Virus record (IMG/VR): IMGVR_UViG_3300017651_000176
Coordinates: 1 to 54,185 of that record
DNA length: 54,185 nt
Strand: one strand, 5' to 3'
DNA from: a virus
Lineage: Duplodnaviria > Caudoviricetes
Positions 671-28,887 of the stretch are shown here, in pieces; position 1 is the first letter of the stretch, and each line of letters opens with the position of its first letter. Position numbers and translations under genes: made by a program. The notes under the pieces are model-generated. The model saw nothing but the letters and a program-made list of their open reading frames with translations. It searched no databases and was not told the DNA's origin.

Positions 671-747
671 GCGGCAGTAGCTCAGCTGGATAGAGCACGG
701 GCCTTCTAAGCCTGAGGTCGGGGGTTCGAGCCCCTCCTGCCGCGCCA
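671..747 (+). tRNA. tRNA-Arg(TCT), prophage integration site
   Basis: Acceptor GCGGCAG/CTGCCGC, D-arm GCTC-AGCTGGATA-GAGC, anticodon loop CT-TCT-AA, T-arm GGGGG-TTCGAGC-CCCTC, encoded CCA; 87 bp from the integrase stop. Confidence 0.97.
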
Positions 748-833: not shown

Positions 834-1982
834 TTACTCAGTCGCAGAGGCCCGTTTTACGCGTCGTCGGTCATAGTGCCGGTGTGTAGTCGCCGGGTTT
901 GCATGCGCGGCAAAATCGTATGCGTCTACGTCGCGTTTTTGCAGCTTCGAAGTAATCGCTGCGGGCCGTATGTCCTGGAGATTGAAGTACATAGGATGGG
1001 CCGTGAGGTTCTTCTCGCTAACAGTCTGATCGTAGGTTTGAATCCAGGCGAGCATGGCATCCTTCCAGGTCGAAGCCCATCCCCACCGCGTATAGGAATC
1101 GCTGCGCTTGGTTGGTGCGAACAGGTACGGGCTGTCTTGGTCCTGACGCGCGAGAGAGCGGGCCACGACACAGCGCAACCGTGTAGACCAAAGCCGCTCC
1201 TTTTCGGTGATGACTTCGCCCTTCCTACGCTTCGTCGCAATGACGCGCACTGCATCCTTCTGAATCCCAGTTTTCAAGAATGGCCGGGCTTCGGACGAAC
1301 GAAAGCCCGTGAGATAAGTGAACATGGCAGCGCATCCCATCGTGCGGTAGTTTTGCCGTTGCTTCAGGCTCCATAGGTAGAAGCGCAGGATCAATCTGCG
1401 CGGCACTACCTTCCCTTCCGCGGTTCCCCTGTTTTTCATCATGTTCGTGAACGGATTGGCGGCGAGCAGGCCCCACCGGACCCCGTAATGGCAGATGACG
1501 GAAAACTGGCTGATTTCCTTGTTGGCCTTGATGGGGGCGCCTCCCTCGGCGCGGTCCTCCAAATACTGATAGCCGTGTTGGGTCGTTAAGTGCGCCGGCG
1601 CCATTTTTCCGAAGAACTTGGTGAGGTTCTCATACATGGATTTTCGAATCCTGCGGCCATCTTTCGACTGGTCTGCGTAGTACTCGGGGTCTACCTGAAG
1701 TTCGAAGCGTTCGATCATGTCGGCGACCGAACCCGCAACCACTACGCCTTGCTGTATCTCAATGGCTGAGCGGGTCGCCCTCCGCTCAGCGGCAAAGCGT
1801 GCTTCCCGGTCCCCAAGACCACAAGACGCCAACGTTTGGGATCGGCCGTCCAGGTGCTTGTAGATCCAGCTAATGCGCTGCTTGCCGACGCGCTTGTACA
1901 GCCTTGGTACTGAGGTCTTTTCCCACGCGGGCGAACGCTTCTCGGTTTGGCGCGCCGGCGAGGCCGGCTTTTTGCGGGCCAT
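834..1982 (-). CDS. int: Tyrosine recombinase (phage integrase)
   Basis: TGFRSSE (catalytic R), QDIR (variant HxxR), AHANPATTHRHY (H...Y); adjacent to tRNA. Confidence 0.9.
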   Translation of the reverse strand: MARKKPASPARQTEKRSPAWEKTSVPRLYKRVGKQRISWIYKHLDGRSQTLASCGLGDREARFAAERRATRSAIEIQQGVVVAGSVADMIERFELQVDPEYYADQSKDGRRIRKSMYENLTKFFGKMAPAHLTTQHGYQYLEDRAEGGAPIKANKEISQFSVICHYGVRWGLLAANPFTNMMKNRGTAEGKVVPRRLILRFYLWSLKQRQNYRTMGCAAMFTYLTGFRSSEARPFLKTGIQKDAVRVIATKRRKGEVITEKERLWSTRLRCVVARSLARQDQDSPYLFAPTKRSDSYTRWGWASTWKDAMLAWIQTYDQTVSEKNLTAHPMYFNLQDIRPAAITSKLQKRDVDAYDFAAHANPATTHRHYDRRRVKRASATE

Positions 1983-6622: not shown

Positions 6623-7332
6623 GCGTGGGCCTCGGCCGGTTGGGGGTTCTGTTTCACACCAGGTTTGGGCAGGAGTGCACGGCGGGCGCTGATCGGCTTC
6701 GGCTCTTCGGTCAGCGCCCAATCAGGCGGGGTGGTCCTGGGGTTGGTATCAGGGACGAAGGGCATTACGACCCCCATAAAGTCCTGACTGTGGTAAGACG
6801 AGGGGAACACGAGCGCGCCGCCAGGGCCGTTGTGCCGCACCTCGATGCTGCTTGCGTGGAGCTTGAGGCTCCCATACATGTCGTGGGCGGCCTTTTCGAA
6901 GTCTGCGAGGTATTGGGGTCTGATATTCGCGGCCTCGCCGGATGTGGTTTTGGGAACGACGGAACGCCAGTTGGGAAATATGCCCTCCACCGACCGGAAC
7001 GCGACCTCCATGTCCCACTTCAAGAGGGGAACGAGCCATTTCCCCTGATCAACTTGCGTGAGGGAAATTGTGGGGACTCCTTTGAGGGACCCAGCCACAA
7101 TGCGCTGCGCGACTTCTCCAGGGATGATCAGGGTTTCGGCCTGGCGCACGTCGTTCGGAACTTCCTTTCGCAGCACGAGTAGGCGGTGGCCATCGGTCGC
7201 TGCCAGGATGGTTTCGGTGGGCGTGGCTTCGACATAGACGCCGTTGAGGTAATAGCGAATGTCGTTCTTCGCCCTGATGCGGCAGGCGGCTTTGAGGGCG
7301 GCGTGGTCGAATTGAATGACGGGTTGGATCAT
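6619..7332 (-). CDS. DNA polymerase III beta-clamp-like protein (partial clamp fold)
   Basis: DIRYYLNGVYVE...AATDGHRL and EGIFPNWRSVVP resemble DnaN motifs; about 237 aa; GGAG-like RBS. Confidence 0.75.
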   Translation of the reverse strand: MIQPVIQFDHAALKAACRIRAKNDIRYYLNGVYVEATPTETILAATDGHRLLVLRKEVPNDVRQAETLIIPGEVAQRIVAGSLKGVPTISLTQVDQGKWLVPLLKWDMEVAFRSVEGIFPNWRSVVPKTTSGEAANIRPQYLADFEKAAHDMYGSLKLHASSIEVRHNGPGGALVFPSSYHSQDFMGVVMPFVPDTNPRTTPPDWALTEEPKPISARRALLPKPGVKQNPQPAEAHA

Positions 7333-14426: not shown

Positions 14427-14687
14427 ATGGGTTCTCTGTAGTTGGCTTCGGTAAGCGCCGCACGCGGCGCTGGCCGAAACCCGCTTTTCAGCGGAATCGG
14501 TTGCCGGCATTCCAACCGGCGTGACCGTTTCTGTTCTTGGCCGTCTGCGCCTCACCCTGTTGACCGTGAACCGCGCTTTGGCGGACTGGATACGGTAGGG
14601 ACACCGCGCAGAGCTGCGGCCATGCCCGCAGTTGCGATTGAGCCGGACGAACACCCCACAGGCGGGGTGAGCAACATCGGCGGCAGA

Positions 14688-14822: not shown

Positions 14823-14865
14823 AATAACCATGGTTATTTAATGAGTCAATAACTATGGTTATTGA
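14823..14865 (-). promoter_or_regulatory. OL operators and pL promoter
   Basis: Palindromes AATAACCATGGTTATT (14823-14838) and AATAACTATGGTTATT (14848-14863) matching OR; minus-strand TTGACT -35 with TATTAT/TATTCA-like -10. Confidence 0.85.
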
Positions 14866-14938
14866 TTGGGCAGGGCGGAACGCGAGGCAGCTTTCGGCTA
14901 CTATCGAAGAATCGTTTTGTTACAAAAGGGAAAGAAAA

Positions 14939-15676
14939 ATGCGGATTCTTACGGGCGGGCTATTAGCTTTGTCGCTATTGGGATGTAAACCCGCAGTGCA
15001 GGGGGATGCGAACAAAGAGCCGCCCCGCAGTCCTGTAGCATCAGCTTCAGAGGGGGCTAGCGCGCCGGCGTCCGCTGTTCCTAAGCCGGCGCAGCCCGGA
15101 GCGGCGCCTTCCTCTGACGCGAAAGGCATCGACCCGGCCGAAATTGTCGAATGCGCTCGTGAGGTGAGCACGGTCATTCGGCTTGCGTGCTACGACGCAC
15201 TTGCCGTGTCGGAAGGTCTTGCGCCGAGAGCCGAAACCGTCGAGAGACCAGCGGTTGGTGCCTGGCGCGTTCGCAAAGACGTTGATCCGCTCACTGACAA
15301 CCCGATCTACTTCGCGACGCTGTTTGCAGATACAGGAAAGGGTAGGTATGGAGGCCCAATCACCCTGACGGTCCGTTGCAAGAACAGTCTTACTGAACTG
15401 TATGTGGGCTGGGGCTCCTACTTGGGAAGCGACGATACGGAAGTCGTTTACCGAATAGACAAGGAAAAGCCGATTCGAGCCGACTGGTCGAATTCGACCG
15501 ACAACAAAGCAACTTTTTTCCCGGGGTCTCCAGTGGCAACATTGAAGAGATTAGTTGACAGCACGTCGTTTGTTGCTAGCGTGACTCCGTACAATGAAAA
15601 CCCTATAACGGCAACGTTTAATACTTCGGGCGCGAAGGAAGCGCTAGCAGACTTGCGTAGTGGCTGCGGTTGGTAG
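14939..15676 (+). CDS. Lipoprotein, VasI/TagO-like (T6SS-associated family)
   Basis: Lipobox LLGC, Pro/Ala linker, CAREVSTVIRLACYDAL, W...DPLTD and terminal CGW pattern. Confidence 0.65.
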   Translation: MRILTGGLLALSLLGCKPAVQGDANKEPPRSPVASASEGASAPASAVPKPAQPGAAPSSDAKGIDPAEIVECAREVSTVIRLACYDALAVSEGLAPRAETVERPAVGAWRVRKDVDPLTDNPIYFATLFADTGKGRYGGPITLTVRCKNSLTELYVGWGSYLGSDDTEVVYRIDKEKPIRADWSNSTDNKATFFPGSPVATLKRLVDSTSFVASVTPYNENPITATFNTSGAKEALADLRSGCGW

Positions 15677-16610: not shown

Positions 16611-17051
16611 ATGAGTTGGCTTGGCAAAGAGCGGGAAGCAGAGGTTTTTGTCGAACGCCTGATTTGGCCGACAGGGCCACGATGCCCCTTTTGTTCGTCG
16701 GCGCGCTCCACCGTGTTGCAACGAGCGGATGGCAAGGTACAGCTCTATAAATGCCGAGATTGCAGAAGGAATTACACGGTCAGGCGGGGGACCGTGTTCG
16801 ACCACACTCATCTCCAGCTATCGCAATGGCTCGAGGCCATGCGGGTTCTAGCTGAAAGTCCGAGCGTATCTGCGGCTGATCTGGCACAGCGAATTGGCGT
16901 TTCTCGAAGGACCGCCTATCGAGTCCTATCGTCGTTGCGTGAGGTGATAGGGAACGTCAGTAACGCGCCTCAATCGGAGGCGCACTTAAGTTTCGACGAT
17001 GTCGCCTCCGCCATCAGGGCGTCATGGCAGGCTTGGTTTGTTGAGGAATGA
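16611..17051 (+). CDS. IS1595-type Zn-ribbon plus HTH protein lacking a DDE domain
   Basis: WPTGPRCPFC...YKCRDCRRNYTVRRGTVFDHTHL..SAADLAQRIGVSRRTAYRVL; RBS GGAG; ends at 146 aa. Confidence 0.75.
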   Translation: MSWLGKEREAEVFVERLIWPTGPRCPFCSSARSTVLQRADGKVQLYKCRDCRRNYTVRRGTVFDHTHLQLSQWLEAMRVLAESPSVSAADLAQRIGVSRRTAYRVLSSLREVIGNVSNAPQSEAHLSFDDVASAIRASWQAWFVEE

Positions 17052-18111
17052 TTGGGTCAGGTATTTCTCCGGCAACCACTTTGTCGACCAAACTGGCAAA
17101 GGCATTGGTATCCATGAAGTAGTTCGGGTAGGCCCGACGCAGCGCGTTGATGTTGTCCACAGACACCAAGACCACTTGCCGAGTCGAGCCCTCTGGGATC
17201 AAGCTTTCGAGTTCCGTGTACTTTGCGTTTGCCTGTTCGGAGTGTTTGGCCTTGTAGCGCCAGACAGTAATTCTTGGAGTAGGGGTGGTGCTAGGCTCGA
17301 GCTCAAGCAAAAAGTACTTTGCGTCTTTCGAGTCTCCGACGATTTGGAGGCTGGTGTTATAGACCATCAGCATCTCTTTCACCCGCAGCTCCGTTACCAA
17401 TCCGGCGATCTCCCTGACGAGAGATTTTTTATTGGTAGGTGTGCCGGGAACAGCAGGGGACTTTTCTATTGAAGCAATGGCGGAACCCATTAGGGAAAAA
17501 AACCTCAGCCATTTTTCATCTCCCTGGTTGGATTTCAAGGCCTGTTTAGTAAAAATACCGACAGCTTCGACAGCCGTAGCCCAGGCATGTTGCAATTGTG
17601 TCCTTATCTGCACCTCCACCTTCATCCCGTTATATACAGTGGTGGCCTTTGCTCCGATGTACTCGAAGACTAGATGTACGCATCGATAGCCGTCGGTTTT
17701 CGGGTTAAGGATGTAGTCCTTCTTGCCGCGTAGCTTGTGAGCAAACTTGTTGTTCGTGTACTGATCAACAAGTCGGCGGACACTGACCATTTTTTTTAAA
17801 ATGGCTCGGCAGCCAGCGATATCCTGCATCTGGCTCATGCGCATAGTGGGATGCCTAGACAGCTTGGCGTGGACGGACTCCAAGCGCTTCGTGCGTTGTG
17901 CCACGACAACGTCCCGTTCTAGTTTTCTGGCCTTATTACGCAGGGTAATTTGGAAGGTATTCAGCGGGTACGCATGGGAAGAGCGCCAATTGTTCAATAC
18001 CGTTAGCGCCAACAACCCTTCGTCGTCAACGACCGGAAATTCCAGATGCGCCAACATTCGGCCAGCTCGATTGAGGGATTCGGTGTCATGCTGAGGAATT
18101 GCCCAATCCAT
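17014..18111 (-). CDS. capRel: Fused CapRel-type toxic small alarmone synthetase (toxSAS), anti-phage defence
   Basis: RelA/SpoT synthetase motifs QRTKR...QDIAGCR...DY...GYRCVH...EVQIRTQLQHAWATAVE plus C-terminal LRRAYPNYF (YxxY) autoinhibitory signature; low GC; downstream of cI. Confidence 0.85.
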   Translation of the reverse strand: MDWAIPQHDTESLNRAGRMLAHLEFPVVDDEGLLALTVLNNWRSSHAYPLNTFQITLRNKARKLERDVVVAQRTKRLESVHAKLSRHPTMRMSQMQDIAGCRAILKKMVSVRRLVDQYTNNKFAHKLRGKKDYILNPKTDGYRCVHLVFEYIGAKATTVYNGMKVEVQIRTQLQHAWATAVEAVGIFTKQALKSNQGDEKWLRFFSLMGSAIASIEKSPAVPGTPTNKKSLVREIAGLVTELRVKEMLMVYNTSLQIVGDSKDAKYFLLELEPSTTPTPRITVWRYKAKHSEQANAKYTELESLIPEGSTRQVVLVSVDNINALRRAYPNYFMDTNAFASLVDKVVAGEIPDPIIPQQTKPAMTP

Positions 18112-18202: not shown

Positions 18203-19270
18203 TCAGCCCCGCACCCACTGCCCCGCCTCATCATCGCGCAGCCTGGCGCCCGCCCATACGACCTGGCCTAGCACGCGGACAGGGTGGCCGTTCTCCAGCG
18301 GGATATCGGGATAGGTCGGGTTGAACGAACGAGCCACCCAGCGCTTCGTCAGACGATCACGGGTTACGGTCTTCACGATCATCTTGCCGTCATAGTTGAT
18401 GGCATAGACTCCGCCGGCGGCGATGTCTCGTAGCGTCAAGGTTTCGTTCGGGACGACAAGGAGGGCGGCGCCATCGCGGATGACGGGTTCCATGCTGTCG
18501 CCTTTCGCATACACAACGCGGGCCTTGCCGTTGTCCGCGCCTACGGCCTTAAGGAACGAGCGGCGGAACTGAATCATCCCCGTCTGCTCTTCGGCGTGGT
18601 TTTCGATCGGATCGCCGGCTGCCAAGCGCACGTCCGCCAGTTCGGGCACCTTCTCGAATCTGTCGTTGGCGGCAGGCGGCTCGCCCACTCCGACATTTGC
18701 GATCACACCTGTCTGCGTGCTGATACGGACCTTGCGGTCCCGCTCCGCTTGGAATGTGGTCGCGCCGCTTTCCCAGGGGGCAGGCGGCAAGCCTTCGATG
18801 CGCATGGGGAACGGATCATCCGCGGCATCCAAGTCTACGAGCGAGCCCGGGGCGTTCGGCGAGTTCGCAGGGGGCGGAGGCTTCGAAACCGTGATGCCGA
18901 GTTTCATTTGAGCGATCGCCAATGCGATCGCCCCTTCCAATGCGTTCAGCTTCTCCGGGGGCAGGGCTCGGATGGAGGCTTCAGATATCGACGCGAAGGG
19001 CCATTTCTGGGGCGGCGTATCGCGCTCCTGGACGGGGGGCGTTGCGCTGGCGCTGTCGGTTGAGTTTTCGTTGTGACCCGTTTCCAGAAAAGTCAGCGAA
19101 ACACCCAGGGCCTCGGCCAACAATCTGCCGTGACGAGTATTGCCCCCGCCCTCAATTTTCTTGATAGCGACTTGCGAAATCCCCACCCGACGGGCGAGCT
19201 CAGCCTGCGAGATCTGTAGCTGCTCGCGGCGCTCCTTAACCCGAGACGCAAAAGTGGAGGGGGAATTCAT
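18203..19270 (-). CDS. cI: CI repressor (HTH plus S24 peptidase)
   Basis: ISQAELARRVGISQVAIKKIE HTH; LAAG cleavage site; GDSMEP Ser; IVKTV Lys. Confidence 0.93.
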   Translation of the reverse strand: MNSPSTFASRVKERREQLQISQAELARRVGISQVAIKKIEGGGNTRHGRLLAEALGVSLTFLETGHNENSTDSASATPPVQERDTPPQKWPFASISEASIRALPPEKLNALEGAIALAIAQMKLGITVSKPPPPANSPNAPGSLVDLDAADDPFPMRIEGLPPAPWESGATTFQAERDRKVRISTQTGVIANVGVGEPPAANDRFEKVPELADVRLAAGDPIENHAEEQTGMIQFRRSFLKAVGADNGKARVVYAKGDSMEPVIRDGAALLVVPNETLTLRDIAAGGVYAINYDGKMIVKTVTRDRLTKRWVARSFNPTYPDIPLENGHPVRVLGQVVWAGARLRDDEAGQWVRG

Positions 19271-25520: not shown

Positions 25521-25749
25521 GGAAATCATCGGGTTGATGGCTGCCTATCCAAAGCGCGATTTCAAGATGATCGAGCTGGTGCGGCACGCAACGGGGGCGC
25601 GGGAGCTGGGCCCACGCGAGCGCGAACGAGAGCGCAAGGCGGTTATGCGCGTTCTGGCGCAACTGGCGGATGCTGGCCATGTCTTGCGTCGGCCGACCCG
25701 CAGCGGGGTGCGCAATTCGCTCTGCTATCGCTGGAAAAGTGGGACATGA
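25507..25749 (+). CDS. Small basic wHTH-like protein
   Basis: 80 aa; RKAVMRVLAQLADAGHV...YRW. Confidence 0.65.
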   Translation: MKFAKEIIGLMAAYPKRDFKMIELVRHATGARELGPRERERERKAVMRVLAQLADAGHVLRRPTRSGVRNSLCYRWKSGT

Positions 25750-25823
25750 AGTCCTCGCAAAGTGGGACGTGATCTGGGACAATTCGTCCGTCCACAGGTG
25801 CGTCCACATGAAGCGCACCTGTC

Positions 25824-25860
25824 AACCCGCCAGATGCAAGTCGGCGGGTTTTTATTTTTT
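25824..25860 (+). terminator. Rho-independent terminator (tR'-like)
   Basis: AACCCGCC-N11-GGCGGGTT followed by T-rich tract. Confidence 0.8.
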
Positions 25861-25978
25861 GCGCGGTGCCCGAGATGCCGAAAGGTCTGGACGAAGGGTG
25901 ATGCCGCTACAGACTCTCCAGTGGGGCGCGCACCCAATACTGGGGAGTCCCTGGGTTCGAATCCCAGCCGCGCAACCT
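25860..25978 (+). ncRNA. tRNA-like RNA without canonical anticodon arm
   Basis: Acceptor TGCGCGG/CCGCGCA-A-CCT; T-arm CTGGG-TTCGAAT-CCCAG; class II-like D-arm CCCGAG...AAGGG; long arm GACTCTCCAGT/ACTGGGGAGTC. Confidence 0.7.
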
Positions 25979-26051
25979 GCGGGCATGCTCATGGTGAGCC
26001 GCCGGCCTTCCAAGCCGCGCAGCGAGGGTTCGATTCCCTCTGCCCGCTCCA
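25979..26051 (+). tRNA. tRNA-Gly(TCC), atypical
   Basis: GCGGGCA/TGCCCGC-T-CCA; anticodon loop CT-TCC-AA; T-arm GAGGG-TTCGATT-CCCTC; 5-nt D-loop, bulged anticodon stem. Confidence 0.85.
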
Positions 26052-26103
26052 CGAAAATGAAAGCCCCGATACGGATTCTCCGGCCGGGGCATTCTCCAAC
26101 TGC

Positions 26104-28043: not shown

Positions 28044-28433
28044 TCAGGCGTGCTCCATCTCGCGTTCAGCGGCCATCGCGAGAAACGCTGAGCGGGAAAG
28101 GTGGCGCGCCTTGGCCTCCTCATCGATACGGTGAACCAGGTTCTCCGGCAGGCTGATATTGAGCCGTACGGCCTTCGTGTTGACCTTGGACAGGTCAATA
28201 TCGACCATCATCCAATATCCGCCTTGATAGTCTTCGTCCTTGGCCCAGGCTTCAGGGGCGGACGGGGCGGGGATGCGCTCAGTCTCGCCGTAGAAGTGTG
28301 CTTCAACTGCTTCCTGGGCTGCGCGGGGAAGATCTTGGAGTTCGTCGGCGGCAGCAAAGCAGCCGGGAAAGTCAGGGAAGGACGCCCCGTAGGCGCTGTT
28401 TTCGTCCTTGTTGACGTGGATAGGGTAGAGCAT
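28044..28433 (-). CDS. hicB: HicB antitoxin
   Basis: YGASFPDFPGCF...RLNISLPENLVHRID...SRSAFL (RHH). Confidence 0.93.
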   Translation of the reverse strand: MLYPIHVNKDENSAYGASFPDFPGCFAAADELQDLPRAAQEAVEAHFYGETERIPAPSAPEAWAKDEDYQGGYWMMVDIDLSKVNTKAVRLNISLPENLVHRIDEEAKARHLSRSAFLAMAAEREMEHA

Positions 28434-28455: not shown

Positions 28456-28638
28456 TTATCGCAGGTCGGCCTGCTTAAGGATGCTGCGCTGTGTCGCTAT
28501 CGGCAAATCCTTCTTGGGATGCGGCACTGTGACCTTGCCGGGCTTGGTCGGGTGCTTGAACTGGTGGTGTGAACCCACGGTGTGCACGTGGTACCAGCCG
28601 TCGGCTTTCAATTGCTTGATGAGGTCTGCGCTGTTCAT
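28456..28638 (-). CDS. hicA: HicA toxin (mRNA interferase)
   Basis: GW...GSHHQFKHPTKPGKVTVPHPKKDL; palindrome GTGTGTAATTATACACAC at its start (likely operator). Confidence 0.95.
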   Translation of the reverse strand: MNSADLIKQLKADGWYHVHTVGSHHQFKHPTKPGKVTVPHPKKDLPIATQRSILKQADLR

Positions 28639-28887
28639 GTGTGTAATTATACACACTACACAAGAATACACAACATTTATTTGCCTCCGCCACTTTGCCA
28701 CTGTGAGCCCGGTGTAGGAGGTGACGCGGGGATTCGGCCATCGCGGCCGGCAGATGTTCAGTAGGTTCCGCCCGCGATGGGCGCGTGGGCTTGACGGGCT
28801 TACACGGTGCAAGCCTTACATCGTGTAAGCGCGAAAACGGCGCACAAGCATGATCGAAAATAAATCGATACGGCGAGGGCTTAAGCC

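Follow-up and report, generated by a model that had tools for sequence, protein, structure and literature searches.

The plus strand of the IMG/VR provirus record IMGVR_UViG_3300017651_000176, a stretch of 54,185 bases with an Achromobacter-like bacterial host (hereafter the window), carries at 25860–25978 a tRNA-like RNA gene with the cloverleaf of a tRNA from which one arm, the anticodon arm, is missing. The element is a real, selected RNA gene whose fold is kept by compensatory changes across a family of 26 distinct sequences, and this family is missed by standard tRNA and RNA-family annotation. Because there is no anticodon arm, the RNA cannot decode. We give somewhat better than even weight to the view that it is a processed, non-decoding derivative of a class II (serine-type) tRNA, both real and selected, for which action in trans as a tRNA mimic is the best explanation. 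The function proposed on that basis, a stable class II tRNA look-alike that would occupy a host protein blind to the anticodon, is a plausible suggestion to which we attach rather less than even confidence.

Architecture of the tRNA-like element

Letters were read directly from the sequence, and the numbering within the element places position n at coordinate 25859+n. The parts of the element are as follows, with lengths in nucleotides (nt) and base pairs (bp).

25860–25978, plus strand: tRNA-like RNA gene, 119 nt, with acceptor, class II D-arm, linker, long arm, T-arm, A73 and CCU; 148.8 bits with covariance model R1
25860–25866, plus strand: acceptor 5′ strand UGCGCGG (U1–G7), forming seven perfect pairs with CCGCGCA at 25968–25974; first pair U1–A72
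25869–25898, plus strand: class II D-arm carrying the D-loop insert; D-stem C10–C12 with G37–G39, CCC at 25869–25871 pairing with GGG at 25896–25898
25877–25886, plus strand: mini-hairpin in the D-loop, 3 bp with a GAAA (GNRA) loop, the insert between A16 and G18
25899–25911, plus strand: 13-nt linker UGAUGCCGCUACA replacing the anticodon arm, unpaired, between D-stem and long arm
25912–25949, plus strand: long arm in the variable-arm slot, 38 nt, with 11 bp, 3–4 inner bp, a 7-nt loop and a 3-nt bulge on the 3′ side
25951–25967, plus strand: T-arm CUGGG-UUCGAAU-CCCAG, canonical, with a 5-bp stem
25968–25978, plus strand: acceptor 3′ strand, A73 at 25975, then the CCU tail

U8 and G9 stand directly after the acceptor 5′ strand, and a single C at 25950 holds the position of C48. 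The bases of a tRNA core are present (U8, A14, G15, G18–G19, A21, C48 and G53-U54-U55-C56...A58...C61) and are invariant or nearly so family-wide. The D-loop runs A14 G15 ... UGGACGAA, the insert sitting between A16 and G18. No anticodon arm, that is a 5-bp stem with a 7-nt loop containing U33, can be drawn in the linker, the best attempt in the window giving 3 of 5 pairs that are not conserved. An earlier note on this DNA had described most of these features, and its description is borne out by the letters themselves: the 7-bp acceptor, the 5-bp T-stem and the TTCGAAT loop lie at the positions claimed, the class II D-arm contains the GAAA hairpin (3 bp, at 25877–25886), the long arm spans 25912–25949 with 11 bp and more, and the ACCT 3′ end abuts tRNA-Gly with no spacer, G1 of tRNA-Gly(UCC) being at 25979. 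Its further statements, that only a linker stands in place of an anticodon arm and that the product is a non-decoding RNA keeping the acceptor, elbow and T face, extend to the family, as the arm is missing in all 26 members.

The ARAGORN and Rfam runs which that note had proposed gave no tRNA or transfer-messenger RNA (tmRNA) call for the element with ARAGORN at default, with Rfam at gathering scores or with Rfam at E ≤ 10 on 25780–26100. The minimum free energy fold of the element as a single sequence is likewise ordinary (z = −1.89), and the case for structure therefore rests on homologs. An alternative hairpin, pairing G38–G41 with C46–U49 and competing with the D-stem, was considered; its eight columns are all invariant, and changes of C12–G37 to U–A favor the D-stem. 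As to the linker as an antisense sequence, the window holds no complementary site, both matches with two mismatches being same-sense or in an unrelated gene.

Homologs and selection on structure

Homologs were sought by pattern scans using four separate parts of the element and by a covariance model, R1, built on 21 distinct sequences. The resulting 26 distinct sequences come from 18 other IMG/VR records, 12 metagenome contigs, 5 of 62 Achromobacter genomes and 4 of 151 host-family genomes. The 18 IMG/VR records were obtained from the pattern scans of viral contigs, in which two matches (L010 and L012) were dropped as chance matches in coding sequence. The species-genome collection contained one true member among nine loci, in Achromobacter agilis LMG 3411, the other eight being chance matches, and the metagenome scan contained 12 true members among 56 loci, many of the 44 chance loci resembling tmRNA 3′ ends by appearance. 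Model R1 found the element in 4 of the 151 sampled host-family genomes, three of these occurrences being new and divergent (L091, L092 and L093), and in 5 of the 62 Achromobacter genomes (G019, G189, G194, G216 and G220), with one element per genome. No family in Rfam 15 matches the element, even at E ≤ 10, and blastn of 25780–26100 against the deposited-phage collection returned 242 records, each matching the tRNA-Gly part only and never the element. Contigs from four sequencing runs (Logan, mostly probable DNA) covered it partially, one variant contig crossing the junction between mimic and tRNA-Gly.

In the alignment of all 26 sequences, which was fitted to the structure by aligning to the model, 94.3% of pair cells hold a standard pair, as compared to 35–54% when the 3′ partners are slid by one to three columns. 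Double-sided changes occur at 13 pairs, and none of 500 column shuffles reached any of five observed measures. An independent MAFFT alignment of 21 sequences gave 94.6% paired cells and seven pairs with double changes, with the same contrast to slid controls. This is the covariation check suggested in the earlier note, and it upholds the claim made there that the element is no simple product of decay: pairing is kept by compensatory changes, and random decay was not seen in the homologs.

The long arm carries most of the signal, with 9 of 11 outer pairs changed on both sides and 94.0% of cells paired, and in L091 it is kept at 10 bp although nearly all of its sequence differs. G·U pairs make up roughly a fifth of the long-arm cells, summed over the 26-sequence counts; these would be A·C mismatches on the opposite strand, and the fold therefore belongs to the plus-strand RNA and not to a DNA site. 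The acceptor stem, with 98.9% of cells paired, keeps the commonest pair type in 24–25 of 26 sequences at each pair. The D-stem is 3 bp and 100% paired, pair 12–37 having changed from C–G to U–A in two sequences from two lineages. The T-arm is paired in 97.7% of cells, and its loop is invariant save in the decayed copies L009 and L093. The loops of the D-loop mini-hairpin are GAAA, GGAA (L011) and GAGA (L092) across the family, so that the GNRA form is kept, and its stem contains one covarying pair (C–G to U–A in L092) together with a G·U to G–C change in six sequences. Of the 13 linker positions, 10 show no change in the 21-sequence alignment and hardly any among the 26, the variable positions being 43 and 51, plus a single C-to-U in L092. 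Mean pairwise identity over 17 loci is 91% in the 5′ part of the mimic, 96.5% in its 3′ part and 81% in the long arm; the corresponding values are 86.5% for the neighboring true tRNA-Gly and 53–65% for the flanks. The acceptor stem, A73 and linker are thus constrained in sequence, and the long arm is constrained in shape.

Variation among members and tRNA-Ser ancestry

The D-loop hairpin is a sub-family trait. It is absent from L093 and from a group of six loci (L028, L029, L030, L063, L078 and L102), all of which have an ordinary class II D-loop and a length of 105–106 nt. The D-arm of these short variants is almost identical to that of the host tRNA-Ser(GCU), and a 12-nt block that stretches over the 3′ strand of the D-stem and the linker is similar to the variable arm of the phage tRNA-Ser(GCU) found in L011 and L031. 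When model R1 is run on the A. agilis genome, the mimic scores 144 bits and is followed by tRNA-Ser(GCU) at 37.7 bits and tRNA-Ser(CGA) at 30.3 bits. The family is accordingly read, by sequence resemblance, as a putative serine-type class II tRNA that would have lost its anticodon arm and grown a very long extra arm; the D-loop hairpin was probably gained later in one branch, an order of events that we infer from its distribution.

The discriminator base differs from that of the presumed ancestor, the mimic having A73 and all four tRNA-Ser genes compared having G73. By a count on aligned rows, at least 24 of the 26 members retain A72 and A73, and 17 have C74–C75. The 3′ tails are CCA in nine members, CCU in four, CCC in four, UCU in four, and other or damaged in five.

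Genomic context and leader

The leader and tRNA features next to the element, and a protein family found upstream in relatives, are these.

25794–25822, plus strand: first leader hairpin, from a fold of 25790–25859
25824–25859, plus strand: GC-rich hairpin and U-run, read from fold and sequence as an intrinsic terminator, ending directly before the element
25979–26051, plus strand: tRNA-Gly(UCC), called by ARAGORN and scoring 41.7 bits with the Rfam tRNA model; abuts the element with no spacer
L008 2595–3185, L005 676–1371 and L091 1843–2451 (minus strand): Cys-cluster proteins of about 200 amino acids

To the left of the element lie early-right genes (a CII-like protein, KilA/ANT, replication proteins and a resolvase-like protein), and to the right a small open reading frame (ORF) on the minus strand, a Dam-type methyltransferase, a HicAB pair on the minus strand and, from 29076, structural genes. 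Among 18 related virus loci, 14 have a tRNA-Gly(UCC) directly against the element, with a distance from A72 to G1 that is always four bases. Other settings exist as well: the element follows tRNA-Met in L091, it stands alone in L053 and L093, and none of these three has a tRNA-Gly beside it. In L092/L096 an HNH gene and then a tRNA-Gly remnant precede the element, and its own terminator-like hairpin comes after it, so that it stands alone there and not as a leader. In L096, from an Alcaligenaceae genome, the HNH-endonuclease-like ORF (6781–7131, minus strand) stops shortly ahead of 12 nt left over from the 3′ end of a tRNA-Gly, within 6759–6780, and the mimic comes next, an arrangement that looks like insertion of a homing endonuclease into a phage tRNA cluster.

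The region 25790–25859 folds into two hairpins with −32.8 kcal/mol (z −5.85; none of 200 shuffles as stable). Two relatives, L008 and L005, have the same two-hairpin layout with a different sequence, the leader z values being −5.9, −5.4 and −3.1, and most relatives have a hairpin and T-run directly 5′ of the element. A simple terminator scan of the window did not flag the leader terminator. Promoter-like sigma-70 sites lie 72 nt (L008, 10 of 12 matches) and 76 nt (L005, 9 of 12) upstream of U1, and similar hexamers are readable upstream of several other loci. A short repeat occurs three times upstream of the leader hairpins at 25740–25800 on the plus strand of the window (first AAGUGGGAC, two times, and last UCUGGGAC), and likewise in L013, neither of which has a sigma-70-like promoter there; another kind of late activator may bind at these repeats.

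In three packaging modules that are unrelated to one another, the element lies a short way ahead of same-strand genes for HNH, small-terminase or large-terminase proteins. By analogy, the arrangement would correspond to the lambdoid late-leader layout, pR′-tR′. At lambda pR′-tR′, read-through of the late-leader terminator needs an antiterminator, Q. In most relatives, the gene directly upstream of the promoter and leader encodes a member of the Cys-cluster family listed above (30–40% mutual identity), which has no Pfam or PHROG match and is, by position, a candidate late-gene regulator of antiterminator type. This gene is absent from the window, where two small unrelated ORFs stand in its place, the upstream gene of the window being unlike that of most relatives. 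The earlier note's suggestion of late expression is consistent with where the element lies, after a promoter and a terminated leader and ahead of the packaging genes. Comparison of the window with the three divergent prophages yielded no protein present in all of them; a CI-type repressor is the only one common to the window and two of them, and the third shares nothing. The element is a small module that moves among temperate phages whose hosts are Achromobacter and related Alcaligenaceae.

Several further features of these loci may be recorded. Between the mimic and tRNA-Gly of L031 lies a second aberrant tRNA-like element (1628–1777, minus strand) with a 6–7-bp acceptor stem, a leucine-type D-arm and a good T-arm, in which about 100 nt of branched hairpins replace the anticodon and variable arms; it is not called by ARAGORN or Rfam, and an exact-pattern scan of viral contigs found only the L031 copy. 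At L101 670–743 (minus strand), ARAGORN reports a “tRNA-???” with a four-base anticodon (tata) that resembles the tRNA-Met(CAU) of L091 with UAU in the loop and one extra C, and that could be an AUA-reading tRNA-Ile or a tRNA with an 8-nt loop. The HicAB toxin–antitoxin pair of the window (HicB 28044–28433 and HicA 28456–28812, minus strand) is situated between the tRNA module and the structural genes, and ORF clusters, spurious and real, suggest HicAB at the same place in about four related loci. At 14608–14681 (plus strand) the window has a full-length match to the Rfam Burkholderiales-2 RNA (RF02917; 97.7 bits, the gathering score being 67.9), a short way before a plus-strand ORF (14855–15676) with a domain like VasI of type VI secretion systems. 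A tRNA-Arg(UCU) at 671–747 (plus strand), near the left end of the record and beside a host-like ORF with high GC content at third codon positions, is likely to be the integration site of the prophage.

Proposed function and alternatives

In the mechanism envisaged, late transcription would read through the leader terminator, as at lambda pR′-tR′ under Q, and the element would thus be transcribed. RNase P would cut before U1 and before G1 of the abutting tRNA-Gly; a cut at the latter site leaves the upstream RNA with A73 and three bases, hence with an end of mature tRNA length, which trimming and the CCA-adding enzyme would finish. Once folded, the RNA would take the L shape of the upper body of a class II tRNA, its D-loop hairpin directed away from the elbow, and in this form may occupy a host protein that reads the acceptor end, elbow and long variable arm and not the anticodon, the target being possibly a tRNA-targeting defense toxin or a synthetase. 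Action as a mimic in trans is suggested because what the element retains coincides exactly with what anticodon-blind readers of class II tRNAs use, and the partner should be a host factor because no phage-encoded partner is conserved. Such readers are documented in the excerpts of published reports drawn upon here and below: MenT3 needs the acceptor–T stem, the D–T core and a long variable loop, a shortened anticodon stem mattering little (PMC11162799), and serine identity, as recognized by seryl-tRNA synthetase (SerRS), rests on the variable arm and not on the anticodon (PMC9976931).

A more specific form of the trans-acting mimic, possible and on the whole rather unlikely, is an anti-defense RNA decoy that would soak up abortive-infection toxins which disable acceptor ends and choose class II tRNAs by the variable arm. 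Candidate targets are nucleotidyltransferases of the MenT/AbiEii type or a toxic small alarmone synthetase (toxSAS). Toxins of the AbiEii family, proteins that we take to be related to MenT toxins, are encoded in 30 of the 62 Achromobacter genomes and in two of the five that bear the mimic.

Several observations weigh against a trans-acting mimic. Across the 62 genomes, AbiEii toxins and the mimic gave no signal of association, and a CapRel-like protein, present in two, never occurs with the mimic; only five genomes are mimic-positive, and these association tests therefore have little power. A full CCA is encoded in only 9 of 26 members. Some copies are visibly damaged, with changes in the T-arm and acceptor (L009), mismatches and a truncated tRNA-Gly (L017), fusion to tRNA-Gly by a deletion (L070), a changed T-loop (L093) or a broken lower long arm (L004/L101), and the gene is therefore dispensable in some lysogens. 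No sigma-70-like promoter was found upstream of the element in the window. Finally, only L091–L093 were found by the covariance model, most other members having been retrieved via exact patterns from the element, and the apparent invariance of the parts so used is therefore inflated; the three model-found members have the same conservation pattern with few changes.

A bolder second reading, which we consider unlikely, is that the RNA is charged and acts as a private, non-decoding aminoacyl carrier. SerRS or, given A73, the leucyl or tyrosyl enzyme (LeuRS or TyrRS) would aminoacylate it, and the product would titrate the synthetase or feed a non-ribosomal transferase. The class II body, the intact D–T core, the invariant A73 and the mostly retained C74–C75 are all consistent with charging. 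Serine identity is anticodon-independent, tRNA-Leu without an anticodon arm is still charged if A73 and the D–T contacts are kept, and the G73 of tRNA-Ser blocks LeuRS and TyrRS (PMC9976931); in all four tRNA-Ser genes compared, G73 stands where the mimic has A73. Against charging, U1–A72 and C3–G70 are unlike the aligned serine-type acceptor stems, the Levitt pair is G15–C48 and not the A15–U48 named for Escherichia coli tRNA-Leu (PMC9976931), no transferase or synthetase gene is linked, and the long arm far exceeds natural variable arms of 3–7 bp (10.1101/2024.07.05.602228).

It is also quite unlikely that the element acts in cis as a processing or stability signal, in which a tRNA-shaped RNase P site trims the terminated leader or sets a downstream 5′ end and the released RNA is without a role. 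Such a signal would fit a place after the leader terminator and upstream of packaging genes that is kept in several unrelated phage backbones, and it would fit the constant spacing of 4 nt to tRNA-Gly at 14 of 18 loci. However, an ordinary tRNA would suffice for this purpose, and one usually follows; the invariant 13-nt linker, the acceptor sequence, A73 and a maintained 15-bp arm would be left unexplained; and in L092/L096 the element ends the unit ahead of its own terminator-like hairpin.

The earlier note had regarded the element as the late partner of a CapRel protein of the same prophage. It was right that the prophage encodes one: a CapRel-like fused toxSAS lies at 17014–18111 on the minus strand, adjoining a CI-type repressor (helix-turn-helix and S24 peptidase; 18203–19270, minus strand), and this position beside the repressor is a typical site of prophage defense cargo. 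The protein matches PF04607 (RelA_SpoT) over residues 72–183 (E 1e-17), PADLOC PDC-S33 over residues 1–346 (E 2e-121) and PDB chains 7ztb_A/9erv_A over residues 34–343 (E 5e-40), 7ZTB being what we take to be CapRel SJ46. An N-terminal RelA_SpoT synthetase fold and a C-terminal sensor/antitoxin part in about 370 amino acids fit a fused toxSAS. The RNA would be the antidote half of a two-part system with this CapRel, soaking up its tRNA pyrophosphorylation while capsid protein is made. In its biochemistry this proposal is sound. A toxSAS recognizes only the acceptor stem, reading the first five acceptor pairs, together with CCA, and modifies a minihelix (10.1101/2024.07.05.602228), and an anticodon-less mimic could therefore be a substrate. 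Comparison across relatives makes the antidote highly improbable. Neither the toxSAS protein nor any RelA_SpoT domain (PF04607) was found in the 18 other mimic-bearing virus records, 10 of which are at least 90% complete, in a search that returned matches in the window and in 11 control genomes. Among the 62 Achromobacter genomes, the mimic is present in five, a CapRel-like protein in two (G180 and G218) and both in none. The two genes are about 8 kb apart in the window, one in the late-leader module and the other in the immunity module. Of four FaRel2 determinants reported, the mimic acceptor shares only G4–C69, and those of CapRel itself may differ, since the tRNA preference of CapRel SJ46 is described as different and still undefined (10.1101/2024.07.05.602228). 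The co-occurrence check thus turned up no mimic-bearing relative with a CapRel-like protein, the proposed CapRel and late tRNA-mimic system is not supported, and the pairing in the window looks like a coincidence of two mobile modules.

That the element is a dead tRNA-Ser gene riding beside a useful tRNA-Gly is very improbable as well. The silence of tRNA finders and the damage in L009, L017, L070 and L093 would be expected of such a gene; double changes at 9 of 11 long-arm pairs, a nearly invariant single-stranded linker, core identity at least equal to that of the adjoining true tRNA-Gly and occurrence without tRNA-Gly in L053, L091 and L093 would not. That the element works as a decoding tRNA, with introns or with an unusual anticodon arm, can be dismissed as next to impossible: ARAGORN at 80% thresholds with introns forces a “tRNA-Trp(cca) with 27-nt intron” at 25860–25977, a call rejected on the grounds that its anticodon loop lies inside the covarying long-arm stem with bases that change among relatives and that the same 80% setting yields a spurious tRNA on the strand opposite tRNA-Gly, while default and intron-allowing runs find nothing, and we know of no splicing endonuclease in bacteria for such short inserts.

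Comparison with known systems

The nearest known RNAs are class II tRNA-Ser species, namely host tRNA-Ser(GCU) and tRNA-Ser(CGA) and the phage tRNA-Ser(GCU) of L011 and L031. They share with the mimic the 7-bp acceptor, U8, the class II D-arm, the UUCGAAU T-loop and the one C between extra arm and T-stem. The mimic differs in having 13 unpaired bases in place of the anticodon arm, an extra arm of about 15 bp as compared to about 5, A73 instead of G73, U1–A72 instead of G1–C72 and, in most members, a D-loop hairpin.

An acceptor/T-arm body without an anticodon arm and with a long helix on the variable-arm side is reminiscent of the tRNA-like domain of tmRNA, as that layout is generally described. 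tmRNA has itself been described as the upper half of a tRNA (PMC3929946). In contrast to tmRNA, the mimic has C3–G70 (25 of 26 members) and not the alanine mark G3·U70, possesses a true D-stem and, at 119 nt, contains no mRNA-like part, tag frame or pseudoknots; neither Rfam nor the tmRNA mode of ARAGORN, even at the 80% threshold, gave a tmRNA match for the element.

The stable RNAs C and D of phage T4 (species 1 and 2) are small RNAs of unknown function with tRNA-like paired ends, encoded in a tRNA cluster. By description, which is the level at which they are set side by side here, they are like the mimic in being small phage RNAs among tRNA genes with tRNA-like ends, and they differ in belonging to a virulent coliphage as opposed to a module of temperate Alcaligenaceae phages. 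The bacterial Y RNA-like YrlA RNAs and the Bacillus cereus pseudo-tRNA “tRNA-Other” are likewise non-decoding; they imitate the tRNA elbow or an entire tRNA, and tRNA enzymes act on them. The ends of YrlA form a Ro-binding stem and not an acceptor stem, and tRNA-Other keeps its anticodon arm.

Codon supply is the usual explanation for phage tRNA genes, and a more recent one is that they replace tRNAs which host defenses have destroyed. Phages use tRNA isoacceptors against tRNA-directed defenses (10.1101/2024.07.05.602228), and the mimic, which lies in a phage tRNA cluster, could similarly counter a tRNA-directed toxin. The defense-evading agents described are decoding tRNAs or, for toxSAS and CapRel, protein inhibitors, whereas the mimic is an anticodon-less RNA. 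Full-text literature searches, as far as listings and abstracts go, returned no such RNA and no RNA decoy of CapRel or of tRNA-targeting defenses, and the CapRel triggers listed in the excerpt of one report are proteins only (PMC13728456). Here, a phage keeps under selection a tRNA body that is unable to decode, and the parts held, namely the acceptor end, elbow and long variable arm, are those read by enzymes and toxins that ignore the anticodon. Work on the family can now draw on a covariance model and a set of about 26 distinct sequences. A decoy or sponge of this kind, if real, would be an RNA-based counter-defense of a new sort and a natural tool for trapping tRNA-binding proteins; if charged, the RNA would serve as an aminoacyl carrier dedicated to non-ribosomal use.

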